Assembly (NCBI GenBank): GCA_963841385.1
Contig: CAWJCO010000002.1
Coordinates: forward strand, 361,172 to 425,171
Length of the DNA: 64,000 bases
Reading direction: 5' to 3'
DNA from: an uncultured Chloroflexia bacterium
GTDB taxonomy: Bacteria; Chloroflexota; Dormibacteria; Aeolococcales; Aeolococcaceae
Shown piece after piece: positions 31,094 through 63,121 of this stretch; the first letter of the stretch is position 1; every line of letters begins with the position of its first letter. The notes beneath the pieces were generated by a model. The model worked only from the letters and a program-made list of their open reading frames with translations, had not been told where the DNA came from and did not search any database. The position numbers were made by a program, and so were the translations under genes.

Positions 31094-31184
31094 GGCCCGA
31101 GGCCGTCCCGGCCGCGCCGCCCGTCTGCCCGCCGATGGCGAGCCGCCGCACCCCGCCAACCGCTCAGCGGATAATCGCCGCGCC

Positions 31185-36096: not shown

Positions 36097-36172
36097 CGGG
36101 GCGTGGCGCAGCCGGTAGCGCGCTTGCTTTGGGAGCAAGAGGTCCCCAGTTCGAGTCTGGGCGCCCCGACCA
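36097..36172 (+). tRNA. tRNA-Pro (anticodon TGG)
   Basis: Acceptor stem CGGGGCG/CGCCCCG, D arm GCGC/GCGC, anticodon arm CTTGC-TTTGGGA-GCAAG, T arm CCCAG-TTCGAGT-CTGGG, encoded CCA end. Confidence 0.97.
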
Positions 36173-38248: not shown

Positions 38249-38773
38249 TCAGCGAGTTTGTTGGGGCGTGGGGATATGGTCGGCGTGCAGCCGTCGCCGC
38301 TCTAGCAAGAGAGCGGCGAGTTGATCTGCGGCCGCTTCGGGATCATCGTGCTCCCAGACACGAAACGGGGTCCATCCCGCTTCGCGAAGCCGGGCGTCGG
38401 TGTCGGCATCGCGTTCCCGAGTCCGCGCGATCTTAACCCGCCACCAGTCGGCATTCGATTTCGGCCACCCAATATGAGCGGGACATCCATGCCAGAAGCA
38501 ACCATCGACAAAGACGGCAACCCTAGTGCCGGGGAAGACCAAGTCTGCCTGACGCCGGAAGTCCGCGAGAGGGCGTCGGTGGACGCGATACCGGAAGCCG
38601 CGGCGGTACACAGCGGATCGAAAGGCGAGTTCGACGAGCGTATCCCACGAGGGTTGGCGCCTGAGCCGTGCGCTAGCCTTGGGCGACGAGGGCACGGGCC
38701 CACGCTGTGTCTTGAGATCGCCCAACCCACGTCGGCCTAGGGCTCGCACGCTCTGCGGGAGGGCATCCATCAT
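38249..38773 (-). CDS. vsr: Very short patch repair endonuclease
   Basis: DT..E, GFRYR, ADLVF, AVFVDGCFWHGCP.H, W..KI......D, GW...RVWEH. ATGA overlap with the 5mC methyltransferase. Confidence 0.93.
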   Translation of the reverse strand: MMDALPQSVRALGRRGLGDLKTQRGPVPSSPKASARLRRQPSWDTLVELAFRSAVYRRGFRYRVHRRPLADFRRQADLVFPGTRVAVFVDGCFWHGCPAHIGWPKSNADWWRVKIARTRERDADTDARLREAGWTPFRVWEHDDPEAAADQLAALLLERRRLHADHIPTPQQTR

Positions 38774-39882: not shown

Positions 39883-39887
39883 GGGAG

Positions 39888-42673: not shown

Positions 42674-43456
42674 TCAAGCTGCTCCCATGGCTCGCCTGAG
42701 CGTCCCCAAGCGAAGAAGGTCGTCGATATGTGCCCTTAGACCCAGCGCGATGTCGGTCCCGCGAAGTAGGACACCAACCTCCAAGTTGCGAGCCGATCCT
42801 CGCTCAGTGAGGTTGGCGCTGGTGATGAACGCCGTGCTCCCGTCCACCAGGACGAGCTTGGCGTGGAGGGAGCCGCCACTCGGCGACCGTTCGTGGGACG
42901 GCCAATGCAGTTGTTCGACCGGCAGGCCGCGAAGCACTCGACCCGGATCACCACGGAAGCCCGGGTTGTCAGCGGGGTCCTCGGCGAGGACGACGACGTG
43001 GACCCCGCGGCCCGATGCTTCGACCAAGGCCTCGCGAAGCTCCTCATACATCTGGAGGGCGAAGGTGACCAGCAGCACCTCTTCGTGTGCCTCGCTGATG
43101 AGCTGAAGTAGGACCTGCTCGGTGCGTCGGGCGTGGAGGGCGCCACTGCTCGGGCCGCTCACTACCAGCTCGACCTCGCTCGAACGGCGGGCGGAGGCGT
43201 GGGCGTGGGCTGCTGCCGCCACCGCGGTACCGACAGTCAGCCCAGTTACCTCAGGACATGAGCGCCAGCTTGCGAGTAGCTGATCGACCGCCGCAGCGAA
43301 CGGCGCCGTCGGGATGAGCGCCGCGATCGACACCGCTTCGTCGGGGGACCTCGCCTCGTCGAGGGCACGGCCGAGTCGCTCTGCCTGAGCTGGAGGGAGG
43401 CTCCGGGCCGCAAGGACCGCGGCTTCCAGTAGCTGGCGCGGTGGCCACTCGGTCAC
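42674..43456 (-). CDS. drmC: DISARM phospholipase D-like nuclease DrmC
   Basis: VELVVSGP, RRTEQVL, HKD motif LHAKLVLVD....ITSANLT, NLEVGV. Follows drmB. Confidence 0.9.
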   Translation of the reverse strand: MTEWPPRQLLEAAVLAARSLPPAQAERLGRALDEARSPDEAVSIAALIPTAPFAAAVDQLLASWRSCPEVTGLTVGTAVAAAAHAHASARRSSEVELVVSGPSSGALHARRTEQVLLQLISEAHEEVLLVTFALQMYEELREALVEASGRGVHVVVLAEDPADNPGFRGDPGRVLRGLPVEQLHWPSHERSPSGGSLHAKLVLVDGSTAFITSANLTERGSARNLEVGVLLRGTDIALGLRAHIDDLLRLGTLRRAMGAA

Positions 43457-43527
43457 CGTGTCCACGGATCGCCTACTGCTCGTGAGGGAGGTGCTACCGG
43501 GCTCACGATTGTGCGCTTCTCCATTGG

Positions 43528-48400: not shown

Positions 48401-49232
48401 CGGCGACGTTGCGGCCGACCGCGAACTCCCGGCAGGCGCGATACAGGAGATCGAGGCCGCGGCGCTCGGCGTCCGCCGAAGGGCCGGTGTCGCTGGCACC
48501 CAGATGAGAGGGGTCGTTGTGGGGAAGGAAGGCCGCCGACGATCCGTCGGGGGCGGTGACGGTGAGCCGGGACTGGTAGAGGCGGGCCTCGTCGCGGTTG
48601 TGCTCCGGTTCGGTCTGGAAGTTGACGAGGGCGAGGTCGATGATCCGCACGCGTCCCCTGAGCCGCGTCCGGGAGCGGAGCAGCACGTGGGTATGACTGG
48701 GGTCAGGCACGATCGTCGCCTCTCCTCGGGTCAGGTCCAGGTCGACCCCACCACCGGCTTCCGATCGGCGCCAGACGCGACGAGGACGGCCGGCGTCGGT
48801 GAGCTGCTGTGAGGAAGGGGCGACCTCGTACCGCCCCCACGCGGCCTCGACGCGCAGCCCGGTGACCAAGGAGTTGACGCTAAAGGAGAGGCCCAGGGAC
48901 GCCGGCATCATGGAGCCTGCCACCGCGGCAGCATTGATGTCCGCGGAGCTTTCCCCTGTGCCGTCCTCCGCTGGCGTGTCGTCGATCAGCTCCGCCTCGA
49001 GAGGGGTACGGGCCGGGGAGAGGACGCCGACAATGTACCGCTCAGAGGGTGTGGACCCATACGGGAGCTCCTCGTCGGGGCCGAGCCACGGTCCCAGGAG
49101 ATCTCGGGAGAGGTACTGCGCCAACTCGTCGCGCACCTGCCGGGATGTCCAGGGAGGCTGAGCGATGGTTGCACGCTGAAGCGGCAGTTCACCATCAACG
49201 GCGTCGAGCGGGAGCCCGGCCGACTGGGTCAC
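45444..49232 (-). CDS. drmA: DISARM SF2 helicase DrmA
   Basis: WRPFQLAF, FPTGGGKTEAY, MRYTLRLLT.QQ, TVDKFA, PPDLIIQDELHLI, ASTAT, VGVDIPRLG, EYIQATSRIGR. Confidence 0.93.
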   Translation of the reverse strand: MTQSAGLPLDAVDGELPLQRATIAQPPWTSRQVRDELAQYLSRDLLGPWLGPDEELPYGSTPSERYIVGVLSPARTPLEAELIDDTPAEDGTGESSADINAAAVAGSMMPASLGLSFSVNSLVTGLRVEAAWGRYEVAPSSQQLTDAGRPRRVWRRSEAGGGVDLDLTRGEATIVPDPSHTHVLLRSRTRLRGRVRIIDLALVNFQTEPEHNRDEARLYQSRLTVTAPDGSSAAFLPHNDPSHLGASDTGPSADAERRGLDLLYRACREFAVGRNVAVDADQRPGEQRAWRLTTTWLPTFDIAQTVAPDPSEFPGLDPAILDMDTLVTGQRSAVIAGLRPLVDGYQGWLDAQEAQLESDPNLEGHANIANHHIHHARRAAARIEAGIDLLARDDRAWEAWRFANRAMALQRVHTEIASLRRERPEIPLAEAEHEVDEPRRHSWRPFQLAFVLLNLPSLTDPTHPDRAQAAAEDGPGVVDLLFFPTGGGKTEAYLGLVAYAVAIRRLHGVVGEGDQARDGGAGIAAMMRYTLRLLTAQQYQRAATLMCACEQLRREAALAAEADGSSNPWGDVPFRVGLWVGAQVAPNWYEDARLAVTALRHQYANTPTNNPVQLLRCPWCARELRPGQDVDCDDDRRRTLIWCGDPDGTCPFSRRQSARWGEGIPAVTVDEEIFRLCPSLLIGTVDKFAQLPLRGYTGLLFGRTTTICARHGYQHDDLTGRTECRGRHPRRGPWPATQPERCLPLRPPDLIIQDELHLISGALGTMVALYEAAVDRLSSWVVGERSVRPKVVASTATVRRASEQVHAIFDREVAIFPPPVLDAGETFFSRQVAVDAAHPGRRYVGVCPHGQRLKQVQIRVAQILLAAAQLLFDEHGEVADPYMTLVDYFSSRTELAGMRRLVDDDIATRLRQQHRRGLRNRPAPEVRELTSRISSQEITRALGALELSFDPGIDSTAAREQRLALLRRRRSGGTDQQREVRAALDTLPRHAPDALPVDIVLSTSMLQVGVDIPRLGLMVVTGQPKSTAEYIQATSRIGRDPSRPGLVVTIANWARPRDLAHFETFGHFHATAYARVEPLSATPFAERALDRGLVGVLVSAIRHARADIEVETGAHGVTAGDADVAAAIEWISARAHDVTSDVESAEELRRRCRELLDDWDRRRRGLEAGHLTYSRSADGMVPLLETAPGRWERWSVPWSLRDVEPEVNLLIEVAAEEVRERPAWVLPPPPEPVTDGDAQETDEPLMVDEMGVIAARTVVEAG

Positions 49233-52200
49233 ACCGTGCCATCCACGAAGAGCTCTCCCTGGGGTGAGCTGGGAGAAGTCATGCGGTGACTGCGGCTGCC
49301 CCTCCGAGCCGTCCCGGATCTCTGTTCCACCGCCCAGCGCTCGTGGTTCAGCTCAAGGAGGCGGTCCAAGACCTCGCGCTGCACCGCGGGGGCGACCGTC
49401 CAGCGCGCGCCCTGGCGGGTCTCGTGGTGGCCGTGCCCAAGGGTAAGGTCGTCCCAGCCATATGAGGAACACGCCGCCTCATCGACAGCGACGTGGATCT
49501 GTCGGAGGTTCTCGACCTCCGGGTCTCGGATCCGGGGATCGTGCATGAGGTTATACGTAGCAGTGAGGCCGAGTTCGCGGTCGAGCATGAGGGCGCGCCG
49601 CCCGCGCTCGAGCTGATCACCAACGAAACGGAGCGGGGCAGTCATCGGCGGGAGTGGGAAGGTCTCAAATACGTCAGACTTCGAATAGCGGAGGTCCCCC
49701 TTCAGGGTCGATGCGCGTGCTATAGCCCACCAGTAATGAAGCGAGCTGGATAGTAGGGCTAGCATGGCGGGGTCATCGGTCGTAAAGACGATGAGCGTTT
49801 GCTGAAACACCTGACGGGCGGAGACGAGGTGCGGCATTAGCGTCTTACTGGTCTGAGCGATCACCAGAACCCGCTCAAGACCGCTGATGTGCTCGTACAG
49901 CTCTGACCGCGGTGCCCAGTATTGCCACCAACAGTCGATGATGCGCTGATACCGTTGCGGATCCAGTTCTTTGCGCTCCGGCTTCACCCTATTCTGTACC
50001 CATTCCCAGGGTTCATGGTAAGTCGCGGCTTCCGCCTGAGATCTGAGTTGAAAGTCGATGACCCATCGCGAGCCAATTCCGAGAGGAGACTGTAGAAGAT
50101 CTTGTCCACCTAGGAATGGCCGAAGCACCTCGGCATTGCGCGGATCGTCCACGATCATTGTCTCGGCGTCGTGTGGGGAAACGGTAAAACCGATGCCATG
50201 CAAGACGCTGCCCTCGAACGCCGCGTGCTCGTTGGCCCGCAGTCTTCTCGACCGCCAATCAGTCCGCCCCGTTGGAGCTAAGCTTGGACTGATGGAGTGC
50301 ACTCGCTCGCCGTCGAGCATACTAACCACTGAGGTAGTCCGCTGTGGCGCCGATAAGCAGACGATTGCGAAATGCACGACGGCGCTTCGGCTTGGCCAGC
50401 GCTCGCTCTTGACGGCACTGTAGATTCGCCAGCCTTGGTCATGGAGCTGATCGAGACCGATTTCGCGACTATCTCCTTGAGCCACTGTGTTCGTCGCAAG
50501 CAGACCCAGAATAGCGCTTGGATGAGCGATGCGAGCGGCCTGCAAGAAGAAGAATGCCACGAGATCAGGTCGCTTCGCCCTCTTACCGTAGGCTACTGCA
50601 TCCCGCAGGTGGGTGCGATACTCTCCGCCAAGTATGCCACTGATATCACCGCCTCCGAGGTACGGCGGGTTACCGATCACGGCGTCGAACCCGGGGTGGT
50701 CGCCCTGGAAGACCTCGGGGAAGAGGAGCGGAAAGTGCGCGGGTCGCCGGACACTCCGCGATCGGTCAGTCAGGACGAATGAAACCTGCTCCTCCAGCGT
50801 GGCTGTGTCGGTGCTCGCCCTCCTGCTGTACGCCTCGGCGAGCTGCACCGCGAGGTCGTAGCTTCCCGCCGAGCCACCGCGAAGACTCGCCGCCGAAAGG
50901 GCGTCGGCGATGCGGGCGAGCCAACTCGTCACTTCCCGCGCCTGGTCGAGGAGGCGGCCCTTGTCCTCCGCGGAACGCACGTCGATCATGGGGATCCCGG
51001 TGATCTGCCGGCGGAGCTGCGCCGCTTCGCCGATGAGGCGGCCGACGTCACCCGGCCAGAGCGGCAGGCGGTCGTTGCGAACCTCGCCCGCGCGTGAGGT
51101 CATGGAGAGGTTGACCAGCTGGTCTGCGCTGGTGATGCCCAACAGGCTGTCACCGACCGCGATGCGGTCGTCCAGGAAGGTAAAGGGGCGGCTGCGGTCC
51201 AGGGTTACGAGCCACAGCGAGAGTTTGCACATCTCAACCGCCATGGGGTTGATGTCTACCCCGTAGATGCAGTGGTCGACGATCGCGCGGCGCGCGTCCA
51301 GCTCCTGGGCTGCGGCCGCTCGGTCGGTGACCTCCACGAGGAGACCCTCGTGCAAGGCACGGGACTCGATGAGCCGCGCTGCCAGATAGCGGGTGGCGGC
51401 GACCAGGAAGGCGCCGCTCCCCGCAGCAATGTCGATGACTCGGAGCGCGAGGATCTCGTCGGGCGGGCGCAGGCGCCAGGCGGCGCGGTCCTCGGTGTCG
51501 AGCGGCCCGGGCGCGTACACAAGTGGTTCGAGGGCGCCGACCACCACCCGCTCGGCGAGGGCTCGCGGGGTGTACACGGTGCCGGTGTGCGCGCGGTAGT
51601 CGCTCTCGGTCAGGTAGAGGCTGAGCGGCGGGTACACGACCGGGAGTTCGCGCGGGTCGCGGCGGAGCAGCCGGCCGAACGGGAGGATAGCCCGCGCGGC
51701 GGCCTCGTCGCCGCCGCAGGCCTCGAGCACCGCCCGCCACAGGCTGTCGTCGGCCTCGGCGAGGATCGCCTTTAGGATGGATGCCTCGCTGCGTCGGCCC
51801 GCCGAGCTGTCGGTGAGCGGCGCGAGCCAGCCGGCAAACTCCTCCGGTCCCTCCTCCAGCTTGAGCTCCATCTCACGCAGCGCCAGCTCCGGGCCGTCGC
51901 GCTCCCCACGCGAGTCGCTGGCGACGCCGAGCACCCAGTCGTCCGAGCGCATCGCGTCTTCGCCGATCAACCCCTCGTAGACGTAGCCGATCTGCTCGAC
52001 GTCGAGCTGCCGGAAGGAGATGCGCCGGCGCTCGCGGCCGAACCGGAGCGTCTGCAAGGCCTCCATGGAATGCAGGAGGGTGCGGTCGTCGATCGCAAGC
52101 GGCGTCGCGCCATCGATGGGATCGCCCGCCGAGGCACGTCCCTCCAGCCAGGGGAAGCGGTCGGGATCGAAGAGGCTTCCACCGTAAGCGGGAAGTCCGA

Positions 52201-53296
52201 GGTCCTCGTGGCGGCTTCCGCGGTGGATCGCCCGGCTGGCAGCGAGGATGCGGTGCCAGGCCTGCGATGACCTTTCGAGTGCATCCTCTCCCATCTCGGT
52301 CGCCCGCGCGCGCAGCTCCGCTGCGAGGGTCGAGGCGGCGTACGCCTCCGAGTAGATGGGGTCGTCGAGCGGGAGAAGCCCCTGCTCCTCAGCGTAGAGG
52401 AGGAAGACCAGGCGCATGAGGATGGTGACCGCGGCCGCGTAGACGTCGCTGGGCTTCACGGAGTTGGGCAGAAGCCCCTGACGCTCACGTGCGCGCTGCT
52501 CGCTATCGAGCCGCCCGATGGTGGCGACCAGCATGTCGACCACTGCCTGGGACTGCTCCTTGAGGCGCTCAGTAATCTCCTCCTGGCGCTCGAGGCTGAG
52601 CCGCAGGAGGGCGGGGAGGGCACGCTCCTCCTCGACCCCGAAGAAGCGCTGCCGGCAGAGGAGGGCGTGGAAGGCCCGGAGCGTCTCCGACTCGTCGAAC
52701 CAGACGTGGCGGGTCCAGGCCACGGTGGTCACCGCCCCGCCGGGGAGGCAGACCAGCGCCCATTCGGTCCCGTCGGTGACAAGTCCGAGGGGGACCTCCT
52801 GGGAGCGAAGTGCGTGGGCGAGGCGATCAGCTGGGCTCGCCGTCCAGGCCGAGGACGCCGAGCGGCTCGTGGCGGTTCGCGCCGTGGCTCGGGTGCCCGG
52901 GGCCGTGATAAGGCCGAGGAGGGCGGGCTTCGCCCCGTCGGTTGGCAGTAGCGCGAAGTCGGGGCGGACCTCGGTAGCGTGCTCCGGGATCGGGGTGGTC
53001 AGCCCCGCGGGCAGGTCGCGGGCGAAGGCGAGGTGGTCTCCCCAGCCGAGGAAGTCGGCGAGGACAACTCGGAGGAAGGCGTCGCGGCTGCCGGGGCTGG
53101 CGTCAAGGAGCTCGCTGGCGTCGCGCAGCCGGGACACGGCGTCGCGGTCCAGCGCCGGAAGCCCCGTCGACCAGACGTCCTTGACCACTGGAGCTGCGAG
53201 GAAGGGGCCGTCGACAGCTATAAGGTCGAGCCAGTCCGCCCCAGATGCCGCTCGGCTGCGTCGGCTAGGCGTCGTCGTGACCCCTCGACCCCTCAT
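49229..53296 (-). CDS. drmMI: DISARM class 1 adenine DNA methyltransferase DrmMI (type IIG/Eco57I-like)
   Basis: DVEQIGYVYEGL, YTPR, motif I DIAAGSGAFL, IYGVDIN, motif IV GNPPY, C-terminal TRD, FETFP. Lies between drmD and drmA with overlapping start/stop codons. Confidence 0.9.
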   Translation of the reverse strand: MRGRGVTTTPSRRSRAASGADWLDLIAVDGPFLAAPVVKDVWSTGLPALDRDAVSRLRDASELLDASPGSRDAFLRVVLADFLGWGDHLAFARDLPAGLTTPIPEHATEVRPDFALLPTDGAKPALLGLITAPGTRATARTATSRSASSAWTASPADRLAHALRSQEVPLGLVTDGTEWALVCLPGGAVTTVAWTRHVWFDESETLRAFHALLCRQRFFGVEEERALPALLRLSLERQEEITERLKEQSQAVVDMLVATIGRLDSEQRARERQGLLPNSVKPSDVYAAAVTILMRLVFLLYAEEQGLLPLDDPIYSEAYAASTLAAELRARATEMGEDALERSSQAWHRILAASRAIHRGSRHEDLGLPAYGGSLFDPDRFPWLEGRASAGDPIDGATPLAIDDRTLLHSMEALQTLRFGRERRRISFRQLDVEQIGYVYEGLIGEDAMRSDDWVLGVASDSRGERDGPELALREMELKLEEGPEEFAGWLAPLTDSSAGRRSEASILKAILAEADDSLWRAVLEACGGDEAAARAILPFGRLLRRDPRELPVVYPPLSLYLTESDYRAHTGTVYTPRALAERVVVGALEPLVYAPGPLDTEDRAAWRLRPPDEILALRVIDIAAGSGAFLVAATRYLAARLIESRALHEGLLVEVTDRAAAAQELDARRAIVDHCIYGVDINPMAVEMCKLSLWLVTLDRSRPFTFLDDRIAVGDSLLGITSADQLVNLSMTSRAGEVRNDRLPLWPGDVGRLIGEAAQLRRQITGIPMIDVRSAEDKGRLLDQAREVTSWLARIADALSAASLRGGSAGSYDLAVQLAEAYSRRASTDTATLEEQVSFVLTDRSRSVRRPAHFPLLFPEVFQGDHPGFDAVIGNPPYLGGGDISGILGGEYRTHLRDAVAYGKRAKRPDLVAFFFLQAARIAHPSAILGLLATNTVAQGDSREIGLDQLHDQGWRIYSAVKSERWPSRSAVVHFAIVCLSAPQRTTSVVSMLDGERVHSISPSLAPTGRTDWRSRRLRANEHAAFEGSVLHGIGFTVSPHDAETMIVDDPRNAEVLRPFLGGQDLLQSPLGIGSRWVIDFQLRSQAEAATYHEPWEWVQNRVKPERKELDPQRYQRIIDCWWQYWAPRSELYEHISGLERVLVIAQTSKTLMPHLVSARQVFQQTLIVFTTDDPAMLALLSSSLHYWWAIARASTLKGDLRYSKSDVFETFPLPPMTAPLRFVGDQLERGRRALMLDRELGLTATYNLMHDPRIRDPEVENLRQIHVAVDEAACSSYGWDDLTLGHGHHETRQGARWTVAPAVQREVLDRLLELNHERWAVEQRSGTARRGSRSHRMTSPSSPQGELFVDGTV

Positions 53297-56200
53297 CGCG
53301 ACGACCCTCCGCGCGAGAGATGAACCACCGCGGCGGTGAAGACGAGGGCGGGCGTCGTCTCGTAGCGGCGGGCGATTGCCGCCATCTCGCGCTCCCGCTC
53401 CTCCGGGATGCGGTCGAGTCGCTCGCGCCAGGCCGCGGCGTCCTGTTCAAGCTGGGCACGCTCATCAGGCGCCTCGTCCGCTCGGAGGTCGGCGAAGGTG
53501 AGCTGGCGGATCGCGCCCAGGCGGGCGACCGCCGCCGAGAGGGAGGCTGCGAAGTCGTCGAGGAGGCGGTTGGTCCGCGCCTCGTCCTCGCTCCGCCGCC
53601 TCTCCAGGGCCCGTCCGAGGCTTCCCTCGCGCTCCTTGGCCCTCGCGTCGATAGCAGCCGTGAGCCGTGGCATCAGCTGCGGCCAGATCCGCGCCAGTTC
53701 GTCACGCATCGAAGGAGGTGCTGCCGACGGTGTGGCGTCCGGCCCGAGGGCCGCGTCGAGGAGCGAATCGAGCTCCTGAACACCAAGTCGGGTGAATGAG
53801 GTGCCCCGTAGGGAGCCACCGGCCGTGAACAGCTCCTCGTGGAGGCGGTTGCCATCGGCTCCGACGATCACCAGGCGGCAGTACGCGGCGAGTACGGCAT
53901 CGGTGAGCCGCCCGTCGGGGATCGTCAGCGCCGCGACGCGGGCGAGGTGCTGGCCGCTCCACACCTCCGCGCGGAGCAGCCGGGTAGCCATGGCCACTAG
54001 GGGGTGGTTGAGATGGGCGAGGACCAGGTCCTGGCGCGATGCTGCCACCTCGGGATCGAAGCTGATCCGGCGCCGCCCGTAGTCGCGATCCTCCAGCGCG
54101 GACGTGGTGCGTGTCCAGGAGCCGGTGAGCTGGGGGACACTCCAGACCTCCGCACCGGATACCCCGTCCGTCTCCGCCTGGAGCGAGGGCTGGCGGCCGA
54201 GATCCAGCCCGACCCGCACCACCCGCTCGATGTCCGCCGGCGAGCAGTGAAGCGCACGTTGCGACTCGCTCAGGCTGTCACGAAGGCGCTTGGCGTCCTG
54301 GCGCAGTGCCCGTTCGACCTTGAGCGCCTCGCGCGCTGCGGCGACGGGGACAACCTTCTCCGGATCGAAGCCGGCAAGGTCCTCGCCGAGCATCCTCGCC
54401 TCCACTGCGCGGGCGAGCACCGGGTTGACGCTTCCCAGGTCCTCGCGCATAGTCGCGACCTTCAGGGCAACGCGGGTCAGGAACTCGAGGTCGGCATCGT
54501 GGCTCTCGGCCCCCGCCGTGCGCCAGTGCGATCCGACGAAGTGGCGAATCTCGGGAGGGTGGTGCTGGCCGTAGCGGTCTATGCGTCCCGCGCGCTGCTC
54601 TAGGCGGTTGGGGTTGAACGGGATGTCGTAGTTGACCAGGCGATGGCAGTGGAGCTGGAGGTCGATCCCCTCGCTCGCTGTGTCGGTGGCGAGAAGGATG
54701 CGCACCGGGTGGCGATCGGGTGGCTTCTGGAAATCGTCCTTGGTCCGTTCGCGCTCCTCCTCATCCATGCCACCGTGGAGGAGGGCGAGGCGACCACCCT
54801 CAGCGAGCCCGTGCGCCTCAAGCAGACGCTGAAGCCAGTTCTGGGTGTCCCGATACTCAGTGAAGATCGCGACCCGCTCGTCGTTCCAGGCACCATCGGG
54901 GTCACCGCCGCGGCAGACCCCGCGCAGGTAGGCGATGAGGGCCTGGGCCTTGGCGTCGCTGCGCTCGGCGTGCTCGTCGGCCCAATGAAGGAGAGTAGTG
55001 AGTAGCTCGCGCTCCCCAGTACCCGGCGGCCCTGCCGATCGGGTCGCGGTGCCCGCAGCAGCCTCCTCTGCTGCCTCGAAGGACTCGTCGTCAGCCCAGT
55101 CCCCGAAGAGCAGGTCGCGGCGCTGCGTTTCGGTCCAGCTCCCGGAGAGGTCGCGGTCCTCGCTCGCCTCGGTGATCGCCCGGGCGTGAAGGCGCAGGGT
55201 GCGCGCGAATGCGAAGGGGCTAGAGAAGAGCCGCTTCTTGAGGAGAAGCGTGATGAGGTCAGCCGAGCGAGCCGCCTTGTCGTCACGTTTCGCCAGCCGC
55301 TGGTGGCGGGCCGCGGTGTAGTCGCGGAGCAGCCGATGTCCCTCGAGCTCGCGTTTCGGGTAGGTGACCGTGATCTCCTCCACGACCCGCGCGGGGTAGC
55401 GGGGGGCTCCGCCGGGGTCGGTGAGCTCGCTCTTCAGCCGGCGGATCAGCACCTGCTGGAGCGCCGACGCATTGGGCGCGACGCCGCGGGCGAAACGCTG
55501 CGGGTCCAGCATCGCCAGAAGCGCGGTCCACGACTCCTCGTAGCCGTTGTGAGGAGTAGCGGAGAGGAACATTCGGTGCTCGGCGCGGTCGGCGATCCGG
55601 TGCACCGCCCGCGTCTGCTGGCTGTCGATCGCGTACCTCCCGCGTCCGGGCGGGGCGCAGTGGTGCGCCTCGTCCACGATGAGCAGGTCGAGGGGATGCC
55701 GGTGGCTCAGTCCCTCCCCCTCGGCGAGGAGCTCCTCGATTAGCCGCTGGCAGCGACCGCCGCGCAACCAGGAGAGGCTGACGATCGTGCGCAAGTGGAC
55801 GCGGAACGGATTGGCGTGCAGTCCCCGCTCCTGGCGGACCTGGCGCAACTCGTCGGTGTCGACGATCTGGAAGTCGAGCCCGAAGCGAGTTGCCATCTCG
55901 TCCCGCCACTTGGTGGTGAGTGGGGCGGGGCAGACCACCATGATCCGACGGGCGCGATGGCGGAGGAGGAGCTCCTGAACGACTAGACCCGCCTCGACCG
56001 TCTTGCCGAGGCCGACGTCGTCGGCGATGAGGAGGTTGACCCGGGGGAGTCGCAGGGAGCGGATGAGCGGCTCGAGCTGGTAGTCCTCGATGGCGATCCC
56101 GGCTCGGAATGGGGCCTGAAGAACCAGGCTCTCTGCGTTGGTGACCGCTCCCCAGCGCAGCGCGTCCAGGAAGGCCCCGATGGCGGCCGGGTCGTCGAAA

Positions 56201-56469
56201 CGTCGCCGACTCGGGTCGGGGAGGGTGCCGGCCTCGAGGATGCGCCGGCCGGGTTCGACCTCCCAAAGGACGGAGATCTCCTCCCCGATCCCGTCGTCCT
56301 CAACTGAAGAGAGGCTGACGATGGTCTCCCCCTCCGTGCCGTCGCGGCTTCGGGGGTCGAGGGGGAGGTTGGAGTGGCGGACCTCGGTGACCAGCCAGTG
56401 GCGTCCACGGGCCACGACGAGGCCCCCCGGGTTGGGGATGGCAGAGCGGGAGGCGAGGCTCACGGTCAT
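53293..56469 (-). CDS. drmD: DISARM SNF2-like helicase DrmD
   Basis: LQAPFRAGI.IEDYQLEPL, LLIADDVGLGKTVEAG, VDEAH, LSATPHNGY, FTEYRDT, EGIDLQ, PFNPNRLEQR.GRIDRYGQ. Confidence 0.93.
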   Translation of the reverse strand: MTVSLASRSAIPNPGGLVVARGRHWLVTEVRHSNLPLDPRSRDGTEGETIVSLSSVEDDGIGEEISVLWEVEPGRRILEAGTLPDPSRRRFDDPAAIGAFLDALRWGAVTNAESLVLQAPFRAGIAIEDYQLEPLIRSLRLPRVNLLIADDVGLGKTVEAGLVVQELLLRHRARRIMVVCPAPLTTKWRDEMATRFGLDFQIVDTDELRQVRQERGLHANPFRVHLRTIVSLSWLRGGRCQRLIEELLAEGEGLSHRHPLDLLIVDEAHHCAPPGRGRYAIDSQQTRAVHRIADRAEHRMFLSATPHNGYEESWTALLAMLDPQRFARGVAPNASALQQVLIRRLKSELTDPGGAPRYPARVVEEITVTYPKRELEGHRLLRDYTAARHQRLAKRDDKAARSADLITLLLKKRLFSSPFAFARTLRLHARAITEASEDRDLSGSWTETQRRDLLFGDWADDESFEAAEEAAAGTATRSAGPPGTGERELLTTLLHWADEHAERSDAKAQALIAYLRGVCRGGDPDGAWNDERVAIFTEYRDTQNWLQRLLEAHGLAEGGRLALLHGGMDEEERERTKDDFQKPPDRHPVRILLATDTASEGIDLQLHCHRLVNYDIPFNPNRLEQRAGRIDRYGQHHPPEIRHFVGSHWRTAGAESHDADLEFLTRVALKVATMREDLGSVNPVLARAVEARMLGEDLAGFDPEKVVPVAAAREALKVERALRQDAKRLRDSLSESQRALHCSPADIERVVRVGLDLGRQPSLQAETDGVSGAEVWSVPQLTGSWTRTTSALEDRDYGRRRISFDPEVAASRQDLVLAHLNHPLVAMATRLLRAEVWSGQHLARVAALTIPDGRLTDAVLAAYCRLVIVGADGNRLHEELFTAGGSLRGTSFTRLGVQELDSLLDAALGPDATPSAAPPSMRDELARIWPQLMPRLTAAIDARAKEREGSLGRALERRRSEDEARTNRLLDDFAASLSAAVARLGAIRQLTFADLRADEAPDERAQLEQDAAAWRERLDRIPEEREREMAAIARRYETTPALVFTAAVVHLSRGGSSR

Positions 56470-56656: not shown

Positions 56657-57778
56657 CTACAGCCCCAGGTAGCTAGAGGCGTTGTCCCGGTAGCGATCCC
56701 CTTCGCGGATGTAGCGGCGGACCATCTCCAGGCTGCGGTGGCCGGTCTGGCGCATGATCGCCCGCTCCGGCGCGCCCTGGGCGGCCGCCTCGGTGGCGAA
56801 GCCGCTCCGCAGGGAGTGACCGGCAACCTCGGTGGGGTCGAGGCCGGCTCGCTGGGCGGCGCGCTGGATCACCCGGGCGATCCCCTGGGGGCTGAGCCGC
56901 CCGGGAGCCAGCCGGCCGGCGGGGTGGCGTCGCGGTTGCCTCGCGGAGGGGCGGCCGCCGGGCAGCGTGCGGGGGAAGAGAGGATCCCCCCGGCCCGCTT
57001 CGGCGAGGAAGAGCCAGCGCTCCAGCGCCAGCACCGGGCAGGTCTCGGGATGCCGCCCGCGAGTGATGCCGATGGTGCGGCCCTCGCCGGCGGGATCGGT
57101 TTTGCCGCGGCGGATGAGCACGTCGACCCCCTGCTCGACGAAGCGGAGGTCGGAGACGTCCAGGGCGCTCAGTTCGCTGCGCCGCATCCCGGAGGCGAAG
57201 CCGAGCAGCAGCAGCGCCCGGTCGCGGACCGCGAGCAGGTCGTCCTCGGGGGTTGCCGCGAGCATGGCCCGGAGGGTGGCCAGGCGGATCGGGGTGACCT
57301 GGCGAGGGCGCGACCCGCGGGTGCGGGCCAGGCCGGCCATGGTCCGCCGCACGGACTCGGCCTGGGTGGAGGAGGGGAGGTGGCCGGCGGCCCGGTGCGC
57401 CTGGGAGATGGCGACCAGTCGGCGGCGCAGGGTCGACGTCGCGGCGCCCGCCTCGCTGCAGGCGGTGAGGTAGAGGGCGACGGTATCCGGTGCGGCAGGC
57501 AGGGCGGACAGCCCGAATCGCCGGCACCAGAGCTGGAAGGCGGCGAAGTCGCTCTGGTAGGCGCGCAGGGTGGCCTCGCTCTTGGAATTGCGGATGGTCT
57601 CGGCGGTCCTCTGGCGGAGCGCATCCAGCTGACGGGCGGCGCTCTCGGGGGTGGCCAGGTGGCTGGCGTCCAACCGGTCGCGGAGCGCGCCCGCGCGCGG
57701 CCGAGGCGTCGCGGACGGCCCCTCCAGACCGTCGGCACGGCTGGCGGAAGGGTGAGGGGTAGGTGGGCCTTGATGCAC
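56657..57778 (-). CDS. Cre-like tyrosine recombinase (resolvase-type)
   Basis: T.RAY.SD...F..WC, STL.RRL.AIS, RDRALLLLGFASGMRRSEL, RGKTD..GEG, CPV.AL..W, GHSLRSGF.T, QTGHRS, RRYIR. Start is uncertain. Confidence 0.92.
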   Translation of the reverse strand: MHQGPPTPHPSASRADGLEGPSATPRPRAGALRDRLDASHLATPESAARQLDALRQRTAETIRNSKSEATLRAYQSDFAAFQLWCRRFGLSALPAAPDTVALYLTACSEAGAATSTLRRRLVAISQAHRAAGHLPSSTQAESVRRTMAGLARTRGSRPRQVTPIRLATLRAMLAATPEDDLLAVRDRALLLLGFASGMRRSELSALDVSDLRFVEQGVDVLIRRGKTDPAGEGRTIGITRGRHPETCPVLALERWLFLAEAGRGDPLFPRTLPGGRPSARQPRRHPAGRLAPGRLSPQGIARVIQRAAQRAGLDPTEVAGHSLRSGFATEAAAQGAPERAIMRQTGHRSLEMVRRYIREGDRYRDNASSYLGL

Positions 57779-57802
57779 GATAAGTTCATATTATCGTGCA
57801 TC
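57772..57802. promoter_or_regulatory. lox/dif-like recombination site
   Basis: Perfect 12-bp inverted repeat GATGCACGATAA-[GTTCATA]-TTATCGTGCATC. AT-rich, with an asymmetric 7-bp spacer, at the 5' end of the recombinase gene. Confidence 0.75.
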
Positions 57803-58026
57803 TAAAGCGGCGGCTCCAGCGTTCCACTTTTCCGACCAGTGGGGCGGCGGGGATGTCCAGGGGGCAGCTCCAACTCAGTGAGCCCCCCGGATGCGTCGTG
57901 GCTAATCCATCTCCGTGCGTGAGTGTCGCGACGTGGGGCCCTATGGGCGTCCCAGCGACCGATGGCGTCGAGAGAGACCGTGACGTGGCGCGCCGGGAGC
58001 TCGCCAGTCGCTATCTCGTCACGTCG

Positions 58027-58935
58027 TTACATCGGGTTGGTCGCCGGCTCGCCGTAGGAAGCAGGTGGCCTCGCACCCGAGATCTCGCCGGCGAGGAAGG
58101 GCCGGAGTTTCTCATCGAGCTCCTCGAGGCTCGCCACCCCGAAGGCCTCCAGCGCCAGCACGGTGAGCCGGTATCGGTTGGCCCGTCGCCCCTGGCTGTC
58201 CCGAACCGCCGCGAGCAGCCCGGCATCCACCAGGCGACCGAGCAGGGTCTCGCAGTCTGCGCCGCGGAGCTCCTCGAGTTGGCGCCGGGTGGCCTCCCGG
58301 TGCCAGCCGACGAAGCCGAGGAGGGCCACCGCGTCCGCGGAGAGCGCGGCGTGGCGCTGCGCGGTCATCACCCTGCCCAGTGCCCGCAGGGCGGGCTCCG
58401 CAGTGGCCAGTGCGCCGAGCCGGATCTCGACGCTGTCCTCGGTGAGGCTCATCCCGCAGGCGGCCAGCCGAGACGCCACCTGGGGCAGTTGGTGGCGCAC
58501 CGCGCTCGTGGGGAGGCCGAGCGCGCCGGCGAGGTCGGTCAGGGCGACGCGTCCTCCGCACGCCCAGAGGCAGGCGGCCAGCCGGACCAGCTGGCTCTCG
58601 AGGCCCTCCACCGGCTCCGGTGGCCGCACCATCATCTCCACGGGCGCATCGAGACCAAGACCACGGCAGAGCCGTTCGAATGTGCGGACTGTGGGCAGCC
58701 GCCGACCGGATTCGATATCGCAGATGACCGTGTGGCTCACCCCGGTGCGACGCGAAGCCGCGCGGACGGAGAGGTGGAGTGTCTCCCGCCGAAGGCGGAG
58801 CTCGACGGCGAGCGGGCTGGGTGCGGCTGTGGCTTGCGGAGGCGAGGACCGGCTTGACGCTGCATCCTCTGACCCTGTTTTGGCCCCGATTTCCCCGCCA
58901 CCACGCGAGAGCTTGTCCGCAATCCCCCCCGTCAT
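58027..58935 (-). CDS. XRE-family HTH::ScpB (SMC kite, tandem winged-helix) fusion protein
   Basis: N-terminal LRLRRETLHLSVRAASRRTGVSHTVICDIESGRRLP (HTH_3). C-terminal LAACLWACGGRVAL.DLAGAL...LSADAVALLGFVGWHREATRRQLEELRG......L..LVDAGLL......GRRANRYRLT...LEAFGVASLEEL follows the ScpB consensus. Confidence 0.78.
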   Translation of the reverse strand: MTGGIADKLSRGGGEIGAKTGSEDAASSRSSPPQATAAPSPLAVELRLRRETLHLSVRAASRRTGVSHTVICDIESGRRLPTVRTFERLCRGLGLDAPVEMMVRPPEPVEGLESQLVRLAACLWACGGRVALTDLAGALGLPTSAVRHQLPQVASRLAACGMSLTEDSVEIRLGALATAEPALRALGRVMTAQRHAALSADAVALLGFVGWHREATRRQLEELRGADCETLLGRLVDAGLLAAVRDSQGRRANRYRLTVLALEAFGVASLEELDEKLRPFLAGEISGARPPASYGEPATNPM

Positions 58936-59199
58936 GGTCACCCCCGCCTTCCCATGTCGAGGCCGGGGCAGCTGGGTGCACTCACTCAAGCTCGATCATC
59001 GAGCGGATAGAGGCCCGCCAGCCAGCGGGTGTCACCACTCCAAGCGGCCGCGTGCGCCCACAGGGGGACGAAGCGGAGCTGATTCTGACCCCTGCCCCGG
59101 GTGCTGACCCGCGCATAGCCCCACCCTCAACTGGTTGCCTTCCCACTGTGCCACTGCCTGTCCGGGGGGCCTCGCTGAGGGCTCCGCGGCGCCTATCAG

Positions 59200-59607
59200 T
59201 CATCGGACGCACTCATCGTGGCCCCACCCATTACGTTCCAAGGCGTCCGCAGCAGCCTCAGCGGCGGGGCTTCCCGCCGGTATCGCTATCGATTCCTTGC
59301 ACCCTGAGCAGCGGAAGGTGACGCGATTCTCGGCTGCGCCCCGCTCGTACCCTGCTTGGAACCCCTCGTCGTACCCGGCCACGCGTCCCTTCCTCATGCC
59401 GTCCTGGTACCCGCGCTTCCGTGCCTCGCCGACATCCCCCTTGACGATGCCAAGTCCCTGCAGCATCAGCTGAGCCTTGGACAGCCCAGTTGCCGCACAG
59501 AGGCTGACCAACTCGTCGCGCGCGGCTCGGGGAATCCGCGCGCTGATCGTCGGATTCGCTACCTCATAACGTGCCCGGCTGGGTGGCTTGTGAGGCGCCC
59601 GCGTCAC
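59200..59607 (-). CDS. Hypothetical protein (RHH-like N-terminus, GxxxG repeat, CxxC/HxxC)
   Basis: GAGGGGGGA RBS; TISARIP....DEL...C...GLSKAQL; GYQDGMRKGRVAGYDEGFQAGYERG; CSGC...HDEC. Confidence 0.6.
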   Translation of the reverse strand: MTRAPHKPPSRARYEVANPTISARIPRAARDELVSLCAATGLSKAQLMLQGLGIVKGDVGEARKRGYQDGMRKGRVAGYDEGFQAGYERGAAENRVTFRCSGCKESIAIPAGSPAAEAAADALERNGWGHDECVR

Positions 59608-60421: not shown

Positions 60422-61945
60422 CTACGCACTCGGCTCGGGCTCGTACCCTGGCGCGTACACGGTGGTCCCGAAGCGACCCGTGATCACCCCGGGGCGCCGA
60501 CCCTCGAGGACGCAACCCGGGAACCGCTCCCCGTACCGGTCGAGGAGGCGGTCACGCTCGTCCTGGGTCTTCACGCCGGCCACTCCACTGGCGAGGACGT
60601 CGCTGGCGGCGGCGTAATGCTCGGGACGGCGTTGAACCCACCCTCGAAGCTTGTCGACTCCCGCGTCAAGTCGGACGGTCGCCAGGTCAGCGGCGCTGGA
60701 GGGTTCGCCCGGGTCAACGGAGAGCGCGGCGGCGATCGCATGGTTCACCAGCGCGTACGCCCGCTCGACAGGCTCCGCACCCACCTCGGCCCCCGCCCCA
60801 CCCGCGACGTGCAAGATGAGGCTGAGCCGCGCAAGCTGGGACGTGGCCTTGGCGATCACTTCCTGACCGAGCGGTGAGACCCCCGGCGCCTGGAAGGCGC
60901 TCCTGAACGTCTCAGTCGCGCGGGCCATCGCCCTCTTGCCCGACGCGGAGAGGGTCAGGCGGCGAGTCTCAACCCGTGGGGGCCGGGGATCGTCCGGCTC
61001 CACGACGAGGCGGCGTGCCAGTTGTCGCCACCCGGCTTCGGTGTCGTCGGTGAGGCCGTGGTCAAAGCGAGGGGTCGCAAGCCCGGCGTCGGTGCGGTTG
61101 ACAAGGAGGAAGCGCGCCCCGAGGCCGTCCCCTCGGCCGAGTAGGTGCTTGAGCTTGGCGGGTTGTATGGAGCCGGTCACCGAGACCCGGGGACGTGCAA
61201 CGATGATTCGCTGGTCGAGGCGGTCGAACTGAAGAGCGCGGCCGTCCCATAGGGTCAGTAGTCGTGCGCCATCCGCGCCGCGGCCGGCCGGTTTGTACTG
61301 ATCAAGCCCACTCACCAGTCCGGTCAGCTCGGCGGCCTCGATGACAAGGCCAGTGCCCGCGTTCTCCATCAGCGGCTGGCGCAGGGATTCGAAGGTGATG
61401 TCAGCCGCCCGACAGCGACGCCGCAACGGCGGGGATGCCGCCTCGTCGTCGCCGAAGGGCAAGATGATGGAGCCAGCCCCACGCCGACCCCGCGACGGCG
61501 GGGGTGTAGCCTCGTCGTCCGCGCGATCGCGGCACCACTTCGCCACCTGGTGCTTGTCGTACGCCTCGCTCCAAGCGACCTCCAACTCGACGAGCGGGCG
61601 GGTCGCGAGGTCGAGGGCCGGTGTCTTGCCCGCGCCCGGGCTCGCGATTACCGCGGTGAAGAGCACTGCGGGGGCGACGAAGCCACGCACCACCTCCAGG
61701 TCGTAGCTGCCACCGATCGCGGCGGCAAGCACAGCAAGACCCGGAAGGGCAACCAGCTCGCCGGGGTACCCAAACGCGGCCTCGGCTGCCCGCGCCAGAT
61801 CGCGTAGGGCGCCTGGCAGGGCCTCGAAGGGATACGGCTGCAACTCGGAGCAACGCGTCCACTTGGCAGGCTCCGGCTCCGGGGACTGGGCACGGATGAC
61901 CTCAGCCCCGAGGTCTGCCCAGTCCCGCTGCCCCGCGGCGCTCAC
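60422..61945 (-). CDS. DUF3987/YfjI-like P-loop replicative helicase
   Basis: YPFEALP..L, L....IASPGAGKT, DIT.E.L, EL.GL...LDQY, LL.LWDG, VSVTGSIQP, DGLGARFL. Confidence 0.85.
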   Translation of the reverse strand: MSAAGQRDWADLGAEVIRAQSPEPEPAKWTRCSELQPYPFEALPGALRDLARAAEAAFGYPGELVALPGLAVLAAAIGGSYDLEVVRGFVAPAVLFTAVIASPGAGKTPALDLATRPLVELEVAWSEAYDKHQVAKWCRDRADDEATPPPSRGRRGAGSIILPFGDDEAASPPLRRRCRAADITFESLRQPLMENAGTGLVIEAAELTGLVSGLDQYKPAGRGADGARLLTLWDGRALQFDRLDQRIIVARPRVSVTGSIQPAKLKHLLGRGDGLGARFLLVNRTDAGLATPRFDHGLTDDTEAGWRQLARRLVVEPDDPRPPRVETRRLTLSASGKRAMARATETFRSAFQAPGVSPLGQEVIAKATSQLARLSLILHVAGGAGAEVGAEPVERAYALVNHAIAAALSVDPGEPSSAADLATVRLDAGVDKLRGWVQRRPEHYAAASDVLASGVAGVKTQDERDRLLDRYGERFPGCVLEGRRPGVITGRFGTTVYAPGYEPEPSA

Positions 61946-62832
61946 GCCGCCCCCTCCTCTGGCGGGACGAAGGCCTCAACCGAGATCCCCAGCCGGCGGG
62001 CGCGTCGCGCCAGGTCGACGGCCGCGTCGAGCCCCGGCGGGTCCGAGTCCGCCCAGATCTCGAGCCGGGTGAGGTCGCAGGGCAGCCCCAGCGCGGCAAC
62101 GCCCCGAGCCGAGCCGGCAGCCCAGACCGAGACTCCGCGAGCTTCCTGGACAGCGAGGCCCGTCTCGATGCCCTCCGCGACGGCAAGTCGCCCGTGGCTC
62201 GGCTCCCCGAGATGAACTGCTCCCCCGGCAACCCGCCCCAGGAAACGCTTGGGCGACCTCACCTCCGCCTTGCCCGAGCCAGAAGGGTCGAGGTAGGTAC
62301 GGTGCAGGCCCGTGACCGCGCCGTCCGGGCGCTGGAAGCGGGCGACCATCGCCGGGAGCCACCGCGTCGCCTCGGGAGGCGCACCGTAGCGGAGCCGCGG
62401 ATGCAGCCGCAGGGCGGTCGGAACGACTCCGGTGAGACCGCGAAATCGGAGGTAGGTGACAAGCCGCGGGTGGTTCGGCAACGCCTCCAACCACAGGTCG
62501 TCGATCAGCGCCGGGGTCACGCTCAGCCGGGTCGGGCGAACACTCCGCCACGCCCCGAGCTCGTCGCCCGTCAGCCGCTCGCGGAGGGTGGCCACCAGCG
62601 CATCGTGCTGGCACCCGGCGAAGCAGATCACGAGCGCCACCTGCTCCCCGGGCCGGACGGCGAGCGATGGCCGTCGGTCCCCGAGGCGCTGCCCATGGTC
62701 GGGCAGCGGACAGTGGGTCACGCCGAACCCGCGCCGCGCGGAGGTGACGCAAGGGCACCCCGGCCGCCGGCAGGAGAGGGCGTCGAGCACCCTGGCGGTG
62801 AGGCTATGCTGGTCGTGGGGACCGGTGTCCAC
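61942..62832 (-). CDS. Toprim-domain primase with N-terminal Zn finger
   Basis: CP...H....D..PSL, CFAGC, YL..RG, PAMVA, GLHRTYL, VAEGIETGLAV, IWADSD..G. Start is uncertain (62832 or 62862). Confidence 0.87.
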   Translation of the reverse strand: MDTGPHDQHSLTARVLDALSCRRPGCPCVTSARRGFGVTHCPLPDHGQRLGDRRPSLAVRPGEQVALVICFAGCQHDALVATLRERLTGDELGAWRSVRPTRLSVTPALIDDLWLEALPNHPRLVTYLRFRGLTGVVPTALRLHPRLRYGAPPEATRWLPAMVARFQRPDGAVTGLHRTYLDPSGSGKAEVRSPKRFLGRVAGGAVHLGEPSHGRLAVAEGIETGLAVQEARGVSVWAAGSARGVAALGLPCDLTRLEIWADSDPPGLDAAVDLARRARRLGISVEAFVPPEEGAA

Positions 62833-63121
62833 GCGCCGTCTCCCGCGCCTCCGAGGCTGCAACCTCGGGGGCGCCCGAACGTTGAGCGGGCCTCCTCGAT
62901 ACCTGCCCGGTGGGCGCGAGAAACTCGGCTCCTTCCAGTGGCGCGGTAGCTGCCAGAACCCTGGCGATGGCCCTCAGGGTGGTGAGCCCTAGCCTCCGGC
63001 GGTTGAGGGCGTGGCTGATGGTGGCCGGCGTCACTCGCGCAAGGGTGGCGAGTTGCTGGCCGTCCAGACCGCGTCGGGCCATCTCCTGGCGAAGCCTATC
63101 GGCGTCGATTGAAACGCCCAT
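62804..63121 (-). CDS. Small XRE/Cro-like HTH protein
   Basis: IDADRLRQEMARRGLDGQQLATLARVTPATISHAL; first gene of the replication operon. Confidence 0.7.
   Translation of the reverse strand: MGVSIDADRLRQEMARRGLDGQQLATLARVTPATISHALNRRRLGLTTLRAIARVLAATAPLEGAEFLAPTGQVSRRPAQRSGAPEVAASEARETARGHRSPRPA

Follow-up and report, generated by a model that had tools for sequence, protein, structure and literature searches.

A candidate Cre/TnpS-type recombination module with an XRE-ScpB fusion partner in a defence island of an uncultured Chloroflexia bacterium

Introduction

Few tyrosine recombinases require a separate helper protein. In one account (PMC7157771), TnpS and TnpT are described as a heteromeric resolvase, made up of a tyrosine recombinase and a divergently expressed helper. 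The same text places the rst site between tnpS and tnpT, with a core pair of inverted repeats (IR1-IR2) and a second pair (IRa-IRb); it also states that the res sites analysed bear promoters and that sites of the TnpI/IRS type include promoters, leading to autoregulation. Here we describe a comparable locus from an uncultured Chloroflexia bacterium (GenBank assembly GCA_963841385.1). It lies in a stretch of 64,000 nucleotides (contig CAWJCO010000002.1, positions 361,172 to 425,171 of the forward strand), hereafter the window. The locus combines a Cre-like tyrosine recombinase gene, a gene for an XRE-type helix-turn-helix (HTH) protein fused to a ScpB-like domain, a perfect palindrome and a conserved box. 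With somewhat better than even confidence, we read these parts as a resolution-type site-specific recombination module of a mobile element with a new helper or regulator.

The following features of the window make up the locus (nt, nucleotides; aa, amino acids).

56657-57778, minus strand: Cre/TnpS-like tyrosine recombinase gene, 373 aa, identified by Pfam and by alignment to Cre, XerD and the pWW0 integrase
57772-57802: proposed core recombination site, a perfect 12-7-12 palindrome, GATGCACGATAA-GTTCATA-TTATCGTGCATC
57820-57837, plus strand: conserved 18-nt box CGTTCCACTTTTCCGACC, candidate accessory or operator site, 17 nt right of the core
57851-59012, ends approximate: segment with the fusion gene and a promoter-like region, inverted with respect to every relative
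58027-58989, minus strand: XRE-HTH::ScpB-like fusion gene, candidate helper or regulator, identified by Pfam (HTH_31/HTH_3 and SMC_ScpB), PDB and Foldseek

Comparison with described systems

On pWW0, an integrase gene is divergent from a gene for a 332-aa 'DNA-binding protein', with a gap of 180 bp between them. We take this 'site-specific integrase' and 'DNA-binding protein' to be TnpS and TnpT of Tn4651, with which their lengths and layout agree. The window recombinase is 29% identical to the pWW0 integrase (30642-31613) over 319 aa (E 3e-27). Like TnpS/TnpT-rst, the locus pairs a Cre-like recombinase with a DNA-binding helper of about 300 aa, and the two are divergent in relatives. The two systems are also alike in a short intergenic site that joins an inverted-repeat core to further conserved elements over promoters, with rst as described in PMC7157771. 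They differ in the helper itself: that of pWW0 consists of KfrA_N and a coiled coil, whereas an XRE HTH is joined here to a ScpB-like double winged helix. The hosts differ as well, being uncultured peat bacteria in the case of the module, and its carriers resemble conjugative elements. No Tn3-type transposase was seen among the Pfam-scanned open reading frames (ORFs), a part of the total, of the window and of loci L005, L016, L019, L021, L030-L032 and L044. In addition, the window pair is co-oriented, and the divergent layout of tnpS and tnpT is found in relatives only.

Other comparisons place the parts of the module individually. The likeness to Cre/loxP comprises full-length similarity to Cre, all catalytic residues, a site with symmetric arms and an asymmetric spacer beside the gene, and a plasmid-borne family. 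The geometry of loxP is 13-8-13, whereas the site here is 12-7-12, overlaps its recombinase's own start and stands alongside a conserved partner gene; its activity is a prediction. In TnpI/IRS of Tn4430 and Tn5401, a tyrosine recombinase is likewise combined with a core repeat and accessory motifs directly upstream, according to the same source (PMC7157771). TnpI itself binds the accessory repeats and needs no helper, in contrast to the separate conserved protein found beside the site here. The ScpB-like domain is homologous to the double winged-helix domain of ScpB in SMC-ScpAB by Pfam, PDB sequence and fold. It differs from ScpB in its fusion with an N-terminal XRE HTH, its position away from scpA, its sub-threshold equivalog score and its tie to a recombinase on mobile DNA, in a host that retains canonical scpAB. 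The partner is best described as a ScpB-derived helper or regulator of a new type, on a TnpS/Cre-type module of otherwise known kind.

The fusion protein

An initial annotation of this DNA had proposed an XRE HTH fused to a ScpB-like domain, and Pfam, PDB sequence matches and AlphaFold/Foldseek all bear this out. The N-terminal half matches HTH_31 (E 2.5e-12, aa 60-115) and HTH_3 (E 2.4e-8), and both Pfam and fold identify it as the Cro/C1-type HTH domain of XRE-family regulators. The C-terminal half matches SMC_ScpB (PF04079; E 5.8e-14; score 52.4 bits, cut-off 27.4) from aa 137 to 293, corresponding to profile positions 3-159 of 160. Sequence searches of the PDB returned the ScpB chains 3w6j_B, 4i98_B and 2z99_A. 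The AlphaFold model shows an HTH followed by two winged helices, with a mean predicted local distance difference test score (pLDDT) of 74 that exceeds 90 across the HTH (aa 60-110). When this model was compared with the PDB by Foldseek, the nine top matches were all ScpB chains, and other kite proteins (ESCRT-II, JetB [8as8_C, E 1.7e-2] and MAGE) appeared at lower ranks. The N-terminal part matched HTH_3 regulators, namely C-proteins, HipB and the P22 c2 repressor. The ORF encodes 320 aa from TTG 58989. The end coordinate of the initial annotation, 58935, is valid as an alternative ATG that is preceded by a G-rich stretch and would give 302 aa, and falls short of the start of the longest ORF.

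Several lines of evidence set the protein apart from canonical ScpB. It fails the NCBIfam ScpB equivalog TIGR00281 (33.9 vs 89.2 bits), and within the host genome the Pfam ScpB model scores it at 54.5 bits (contig C2) against 155.4 bits for the canonical protein (C4). The initial annotation had observed that scpA and smc are absent from the window, and this holds: the genome's sole ScpA match (G000:C4:256509-257123), like its SMC hinge match and the canonical ScpB (155 bits), is on C4, where scpA and scpB occur together, and the window is on C2. The term 'orphan' used there was wrong insofar as the host keeps a canonical scpAB-smc set elsewhere. The fusion is instead a second ScpB copy in the genome, apart from scpA, unlike the canonical gene, which is found once per genome in an scpA operon. 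Likewise, three carrier genomes each have one scpA, distant from the module. Among the ORFs scanned, no kleisin or SMC gene was found beside the fusion gene at any locus.

The family is small and unevenly distributed. Clustering at 90% gives 38 proteins, and clustering at 50% gives 40 cluster representatives with E<=1e-30. Many members have an RRGRR-type basic motif at the N terminus, which is absent from the window protein. The fusion is rare and patchy within the phylum, being present in five of 401 genomes and in neither of the two other genomes of the genus. A search of IMG/VR with the family alignment gave no relative of the protein, and a search of PLSDB plasmids with the protein gave no match. 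One source names a family member 'Candidatus Dormibacteria', and other loci derive from Chloroflexia and Actinomycetota metagenome-assembled genomes (MAGs) and from metagenome contigs. The public runs that contain the window sequence are labelled peat metagenome, apart from one freshwater-sediment run. No published account of an ScpB-HTH fusion tied to a tyrosine recombinase was found in a literature search that covered papers without their supplements.

The recombinase

The neighbouring gene encodes a Cre-like tyrosine recombinase, as the initial annotation had stated. Pfam identifies Phage_integrase (E 1.3e-21) and a SAM-like N-domain, and alignments to Cre (aa 55-361 vs Cre 24-329, E 2e-11) and to XerD extend over the full length of the protein. 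In an alignment of 26 sequences, R199, H321, R324, H347 and Y356 are invariant and K226 is nearly so. Judged by its sequence, the window recombinase is catalytically intact, with the R-K-H-R-H-Y set and two domains present. Its family is large: of the candidates scored, 3419 proteins reach E<=1e-20. In PLSDB, the family occurs in 1052 records at 1113 places in total and is mostly single-copy per plasmid. A 299-aa gene product of an Alicyclobacillus plasmid, encoded upstream of and co-oriented with a recombinase homologue, was considered as another helper; it was rejected for its lack of similarity to the fusion protein and of any Pfam match.

The palindrome and the conserved box

The palindrome is the sole perfect inverted repeat with arms of at least 12 nt and a spacer of 5-9 nt in the 64-kb window, against an expectation of 0.07 (30 Markov-1 shuffles). 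None of 100 shuffles matched it in a separate control. It occurs once in the 2.18-Mb assembly; no second copy was found in the window at up to three mismatches or in the assembly at up to two mismatches with a shorter pattern. Its 12-7-12 geometry fits tyrosine recombinase cores, in which inverted arms surround a spacer of 6-8 bp, and it is a candidate site of this kind. The initial annotation was right that the palindrome is perfect; the site is not strictly between the genes, because the GTG start of the recombinase (57778) lies within its left arm. Read in the sense of the recombinase, the spacer is TATGAAC, and 'GATAAT' of the core forms a possible -10 element. A promoter and terminator scan of this DNA, with a G+C content of 70%, gave nothing useful.

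The 18-nt box is found with zero to three mismatches, at a fixed spacing of 17 nt, in 16 related loci as well as the window, and the 17 nt between core and box vary. Beyond the box, the fusion gene of relatives has a -10-like TATCAT some 9 nt ahead of its ATG. There is one box per module; this single copy led us to reject a centromere-like array as an interpretation of it. At the place of the window palindrome, relatives have imperfect cores. The right arm, TTATCGTGCATC(C), is retained in all sequence groups, and the left arm is degenerate, reading TGCACGGGAA in the group whose recombinases are about 70% identical to that of the window. In the group at about 47%, a better 12-7-12 repeat, AACTAGCGATAA-GCATCCC-TTATCACTAGTT, stands immediately beside the core position. 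Locus L026 has the window palindrome with one mismatch. There, an insertion sequence (IS) of the IS3 family, its OrfA start visible at L026:1-240, truncates the recombinase gene after about 12 codons and leaves the palindrome and the fusion gene intact.

Two further loci bear on the question of which protein recognizes which element. On a circular Rubrobacter plasmid, GACCCTCGATAA-TATAAAC-TTATCCGGGGTC lies 22 nt upstream of a recombinase 42% identical to that of the window, and no fusion gene is present among the annotated genes up to 5 kb from this recombinase. The distant locus L011 has a perfect 12-7-12 palindrome of its own with a different sequence, TATGTCCGGAAA-GGGAATC-TTTCCGGACATA. Because a CGATAA-N7-TTATC core thus accompanies the Rubrobacter recombinase without the fusion gene, and the core varies with the recombinase in L011, we infer that the palindrome belongs to the recombinase and that the core follows this enzyme, not the helper. 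The box would then be the likelier target of the HTH protein. A comparison of L011 with the window led to no conclusion on this last point, because the recognition-helix residues of the HTH differ while the box is similar.

Conservation of the gene pair

Eighteen loci from other records were informative: each encodes a protein no less than 55% identical to the fusion protein and has 600 nt or more of flanking sequence upstream. A recombinase homologue lies upstream of and divergent from the fusion gene in 14 of them and is co-oriented with it in none. In the paired relatives, the lox-like core and the box lie between the divergent genes. The recurring linkage to a recombinase and a lox-like site, which the initial annotation had put forward as a check, is therefore present in 14 of the 18, and the co-orientation seen in the window, reported correctly at the outset, is an exception among divergent relatives. 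The 14 loci fall into about three sequence groups. In two of them the recombinases share about 70% and about 47% identity, respectively, with that of the window, and the third is the window's own group (L026, L037). In L037, a homologue of the 135-aa protein encoded near the fusion gene in the window also adjoins the module. A more distant pair is found in L011, at 37% and 39% identity. On the loci compared, the recombinase and fusion genes are a conserved pair in mobile elements of uncultured peat bacteria.

The genes around the pair in relatives are those of a mobile element. In L016 and in the genome of L005 and L044, ParA and ParB_N genes are followed by one to three small genes and the recombinase gene (minus strand), then by the site, the fusion gene (plus strand) and a divergent gene for a ParA-like ATPase. 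Beyond the latter are ribbon-helix-helix and XRE regulators, a CHAP hydrolase and a VirB4/TraG-like ATPase. The divergent ParA/MinD-like ATPase gene (PHROG 164, E 1.2e-19) overlaps the end of the fusion gene in several relatives (L016:5424-6587, L031:121-1494, L032:787-1746, L005:10603-11871). Judged by gene content, the module in these relatives sits in the maintenance region of a conjugative element. The suggestion in the initial annotation of a maintenance or resolution cassette with an accessory factor is partly supported by this, fitting both the parAB and conjugation context and the TnpS-like recombinase.

Locus L005, in a contig of 1.5 Mb, is the most elaborate of these regions. Its recombinase and fusion genes are 8.9 kb apart, with inserted cargo between them. 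Two direct copies (L005:1220-1700 and L005:9818-10300), about 98% identical, flank about 8.6 kb of cargo, and each holds the core, the box, the promoter and the 5' half of the fusion gene. Among the products of the cargo are an RHS-repeat protein of 1582 aa and a ScpB-like paralogue that has diverged, and the recombinase gene at the second copy is reduced to about seven codons. The duplication looks like a cointegrate or an accretion of two related elements.

Two other loci have features of their own. In L011, the palindrome and the recombinase gene are separated by a GNAT-like coding region, which may be fused to the recombinase (L011:2440-3790). In L006, an Actinomycetota MAG, two or three fusion-like paralogues are close together (L006:5653-6552, L006:10053-11024) and no recombinase is present; their neighbours encode a trypsin-STAND NTPase, a GNAT protein and a methyltransferase, and a drmD gene is 9 kb away.

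Inversion of the helper segment in the window

The window is alone in having the fusion gene upstream of and co-oriented with the recombinase gene. In blastn comparisons with all loci that carry both genes, the recombinase and fusion genes align to the window in opposite orientations. Homology to L026, L037 and L016 spans the palindrome and the box as far as about 57850; from about 59030-59012 it continues on the other strand. The ends of the inverted segment carry an imperfect inverted 16-mer (12 of 16 positions matching), and a similar promoter-like stretch, 'GGCGG(G/A)CCTC ... GATGAT', precedes TTG 58989. Inversion by a crossover in the palindrome was rejected, because homology to the relatives continues through palindrome and box and the inverted 16-mer is at the segment ends.

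The new junctions are also found outside the assembly. Logan contigs bridge them in two peat runs, at a depth of about 5-6: record 4 of run X1 corresponds to 57298-57933 and record 13 of run X2 to 57777-58628. As a result, the arrangement is not an artefact of MAG assembly alone, with the proviso that these runs may include the source sample. Only the window arrangement was seen in public runs, where Logan contigs cannot reveal minority forms.

The genomic island

The assembly comprises 2.18 Mb, is 68% complete and has the window on contig C2; the G+C content of the window is about 70%. The gene order on the minus strand is primase, DUF3987 protein, 135-aa protein, fusion gene, recombinase and a class 1 DISARM system (defence island system associated with restriction-modification). 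The features outside the module are the following.

61942-62862, minus strand: primase with DUF7146 and Toprim domains (Pfam, PHROGs)
60422-61945, minus strand: DUF3987 helicase-like protein (Pfam, PHROGs)
59200-59607, minus strand: 135-aa protein, upstream of and co-directional with the fusion gene
53293-56469, minus strand: drmD (PADLOC and NCBIfam equivalog)
49229-53296, minus strand: drmMI (PADLOC and NCBIfam equivalog)
45444-49232, minus strand: drmA (PADLOC and NCBIfam equivalog)
43528-45447, minus strand: drmB (PADLOC and NCBIfam equivalog)
42674-43663, minus strand: drmC (PADLOC and NCBIfam equivalog)
36451-37404, plus strand: second tyrosine integrase at the island boundary (Pfam Phage_integrase, E 7e-28)
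36097-36172, plus strand: tRNA-Pro at the island boundary (ARAGORN)

The DISARM operon (42674-56469) is complete and directly 3' of the recombinase gene, with 187 nt from the recombinase stop to the start of drmD. It is neighbouring cargo, outside the module: neither the recombinase nor the fusion gene was found within about 1.5 kb of DrmD at any of 29 loci in other genomes of the phylum, and DISARM was not found beside the module in relatives. On these comparisons, the module is without a general link to DISARM.

Past 36 kb, the G+C content decreases. The end of the contig is an exact 27-nt repeat of the 5' part of the tRNA-Pro gene, 46.9 kb from that gene (L042:18961-18987), and resembles an assembly break at the second att/tRNA repeat of the island. 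Other genes of the island encode a C5 methylase, a CHAT protease and a deaminase accompanied by an M78 peptidase, and several IS elements are present. With the tRNA, integrase, DISARM, methylase, deaminase/M78 and CHAT genes around it, the module lies in a tRNA-Pro island with many defence genes. The initial annotation had identified the cassette without this context, in which it stands immediately upstream of DISARM in a tRNA-Pro island. No ParA-like gene, parAB or conjugation genes are present in the window.

Further genes of the island and genome were recorded alongside. Just downstream of DISARM are genes for a C5 cytosine methylase and a Methyltransf_35 protein, a putative O-methyltransferase (window 38770-40838). 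Past the window end, a cytidine-deaminase-domain protein is encoded beside an M78 (IrrE-like) peptidase (L042:3302-5994), and a 1040-aa CHAT-domain protein follows (L042:14597-17719); these are possible defence genes. Between them, two inverted genes for 417-aa IS256-type (Mutator family) transposases bracket genes for IS1595- and IS30-type transposases (L042:6509-12480), in an arrangement that resembles a composite transposon. A second DrmD in the same genome (G000:C4:334697-337804) is 50% identical to that of the window, which makes a second DISARM system probable.

Proposed role and alternative explanations

In the reading favoured here, the module consists of a Cre/TnpS-type recombinase, its cognate 12-7-12 core over its own start and promoter, and the XRE-ScpB partner. 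The partner would bind the adjacent conserved box and intergenic DNA, where it would repress two divergent promoters. Alternatively, it may serve as an accessory factor, confining the reaction to the resolution of multimers or cointegrates of the circular form, in parallel with TnpT, which acts with TnpS at rst in Tn4651. We infer the match of each protein to its DNA element, the resolution reaction and the contact between helper and recombinase. The window module may itself be what is left of a captured element, or a part of one put to new use, since it is a rearranged copy in a defence island of about 47 kb.

Several observations weigh against this reading. The fusion gene occurs without a recombinase in four of the 18 informative loci (L006, L033, L035, L040) and as tandem paralogues in L006, L018-L020 and L030, so it can act apart from the recombinase. 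The 14 paired loci are not independent, because many are near-duplicates from similar peat samples; about four distinct sequence groups can be told apart. Of the seven plasmid recombinase homologues inspected, the Rubrobacter one is alone in having a similar palindrome close to its start. In the window, the helper gene is displaced from the box and the N-terminal 50 residues of its product are unlike those of relatives. Comparison of the fusion family profile with the pWW0 helper by hhalign gave a probability of about 0.1%.

A rival account, possible though well short of even odds in our judgement, is that the fusion protein is an ordinary XRE repressor. Its winged helices would only dimerise or sense, the palindrome would be its operator, and the recombinase would merely be one of the genes under its control, with no accessory part for the protein in recombination. 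The HTH_3/HTH_31 domains and the structural matches to C-proteins, HipB and the P22 c2 repressor fit such a role, as do the loci without a recombinase and the paralogues beside unrelated genes. Palindrome and box lie over or between two divergent promoters (TATCAT; GATAAT in the core), and the palindrome might just as well be the HTH protein's operator, which is a further point against our own reading. However, a site of 31 bp with 12 perfect bases per arm exceeds the usual XRE operators in length, a similar core precedes the Rubrobacter plasmid recombinase without the fusion gene, and the L011 core changes together with its recombinase. The recombinase might instead be the integrase of the element, the palindrome an attP-like site and the fusion protein a regulator or directionality factor. 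We consider this unlikely. Source annotations do call the recombinase family gene an integrase, some elements are in large contigs (L005, 1.5 Mb), and the direct copies of site, box and 5' fusion gene around about 8.6 kb in L005 are as insertion at a site would yield. The L005 duplication nevertheless runs about 480 bp past the site at about 98% identity, and homologous recombination explains it equally well for this reason. The integrase account is further weakened by the site, which is intact and internal, with element genes on both sides, in the window and all relatives, and by the island's own integrase beside tRNA-Pro.

The remaining explanations give the ScpB-like domain or the DISARM operon the leading part. 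It is very improbable that the ScpB half is a working kite at the box, recruiting host ScpA/SMC or titrating a Wadjet/SMC kleisin, in an activity coupled to dimer resolution. We give slighter credence still to a domain that binds a kleisin (ScpA/JetA) and either loads condensin at the box or site or serves as a decoy kite against SMC-based restriction. Homology to ScpB over the whole Pfam model, ScpB chains as top structural matches with JetB lower down, and carriage on conjugative or mobile DNA would suit a kite. Against it are the low equivalog and Pfam scores beside those of the threshold and of host ScpB, and the lack of an adjoining kleisin or SMC gene among scanned ORFs, with the one scpA of each of three carrier genomes located elsewhere. 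The strongest conserved neighbour, too, is a recombinase and not an SMC component. The decoy kite or condensin tether of the initial annotation thus finds no support, given the single, distant scpA genes and the equivalog score. Last, the cassette might be a regulatory or phase-variation switch for the DISARM operon downstream, a notion invited by the shared minus strand of fusion, recombinase and drmD-drmC genes, by the 187 nt before drmD and by the fusion-like gene 9 kb from drmD in the distant L006. Relatives of the module are without DISARM, and a switch is near-excluded by the absence of linkage at all 29 DrmD loci and of a second site for inversion in the window or genome.

Significance

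The locus provides a compact, testable unit of enzyme, 31-bp core, 18-nt box and helper, from phyla that lack genetic tools and are represented here by peat MAGs of Dormibacterota-like, Chloroflexota and Actinomycetota affiliation. It also indicates that a DISARM-bearing tRNA island has acquired parts of a conjugative element. If the ScpB-like domain still binds ScpA, it would be, to our knowledge, the first sequence-targeted kite, a literature search having found no report of one. If the resolution module proposed here is real, a second, unrelated type of helper would join the TnpS/TnpT class, and the kite domain of a condensin would have been co-opted into a sequence-specific DNA-binding protein on mobile DNA.

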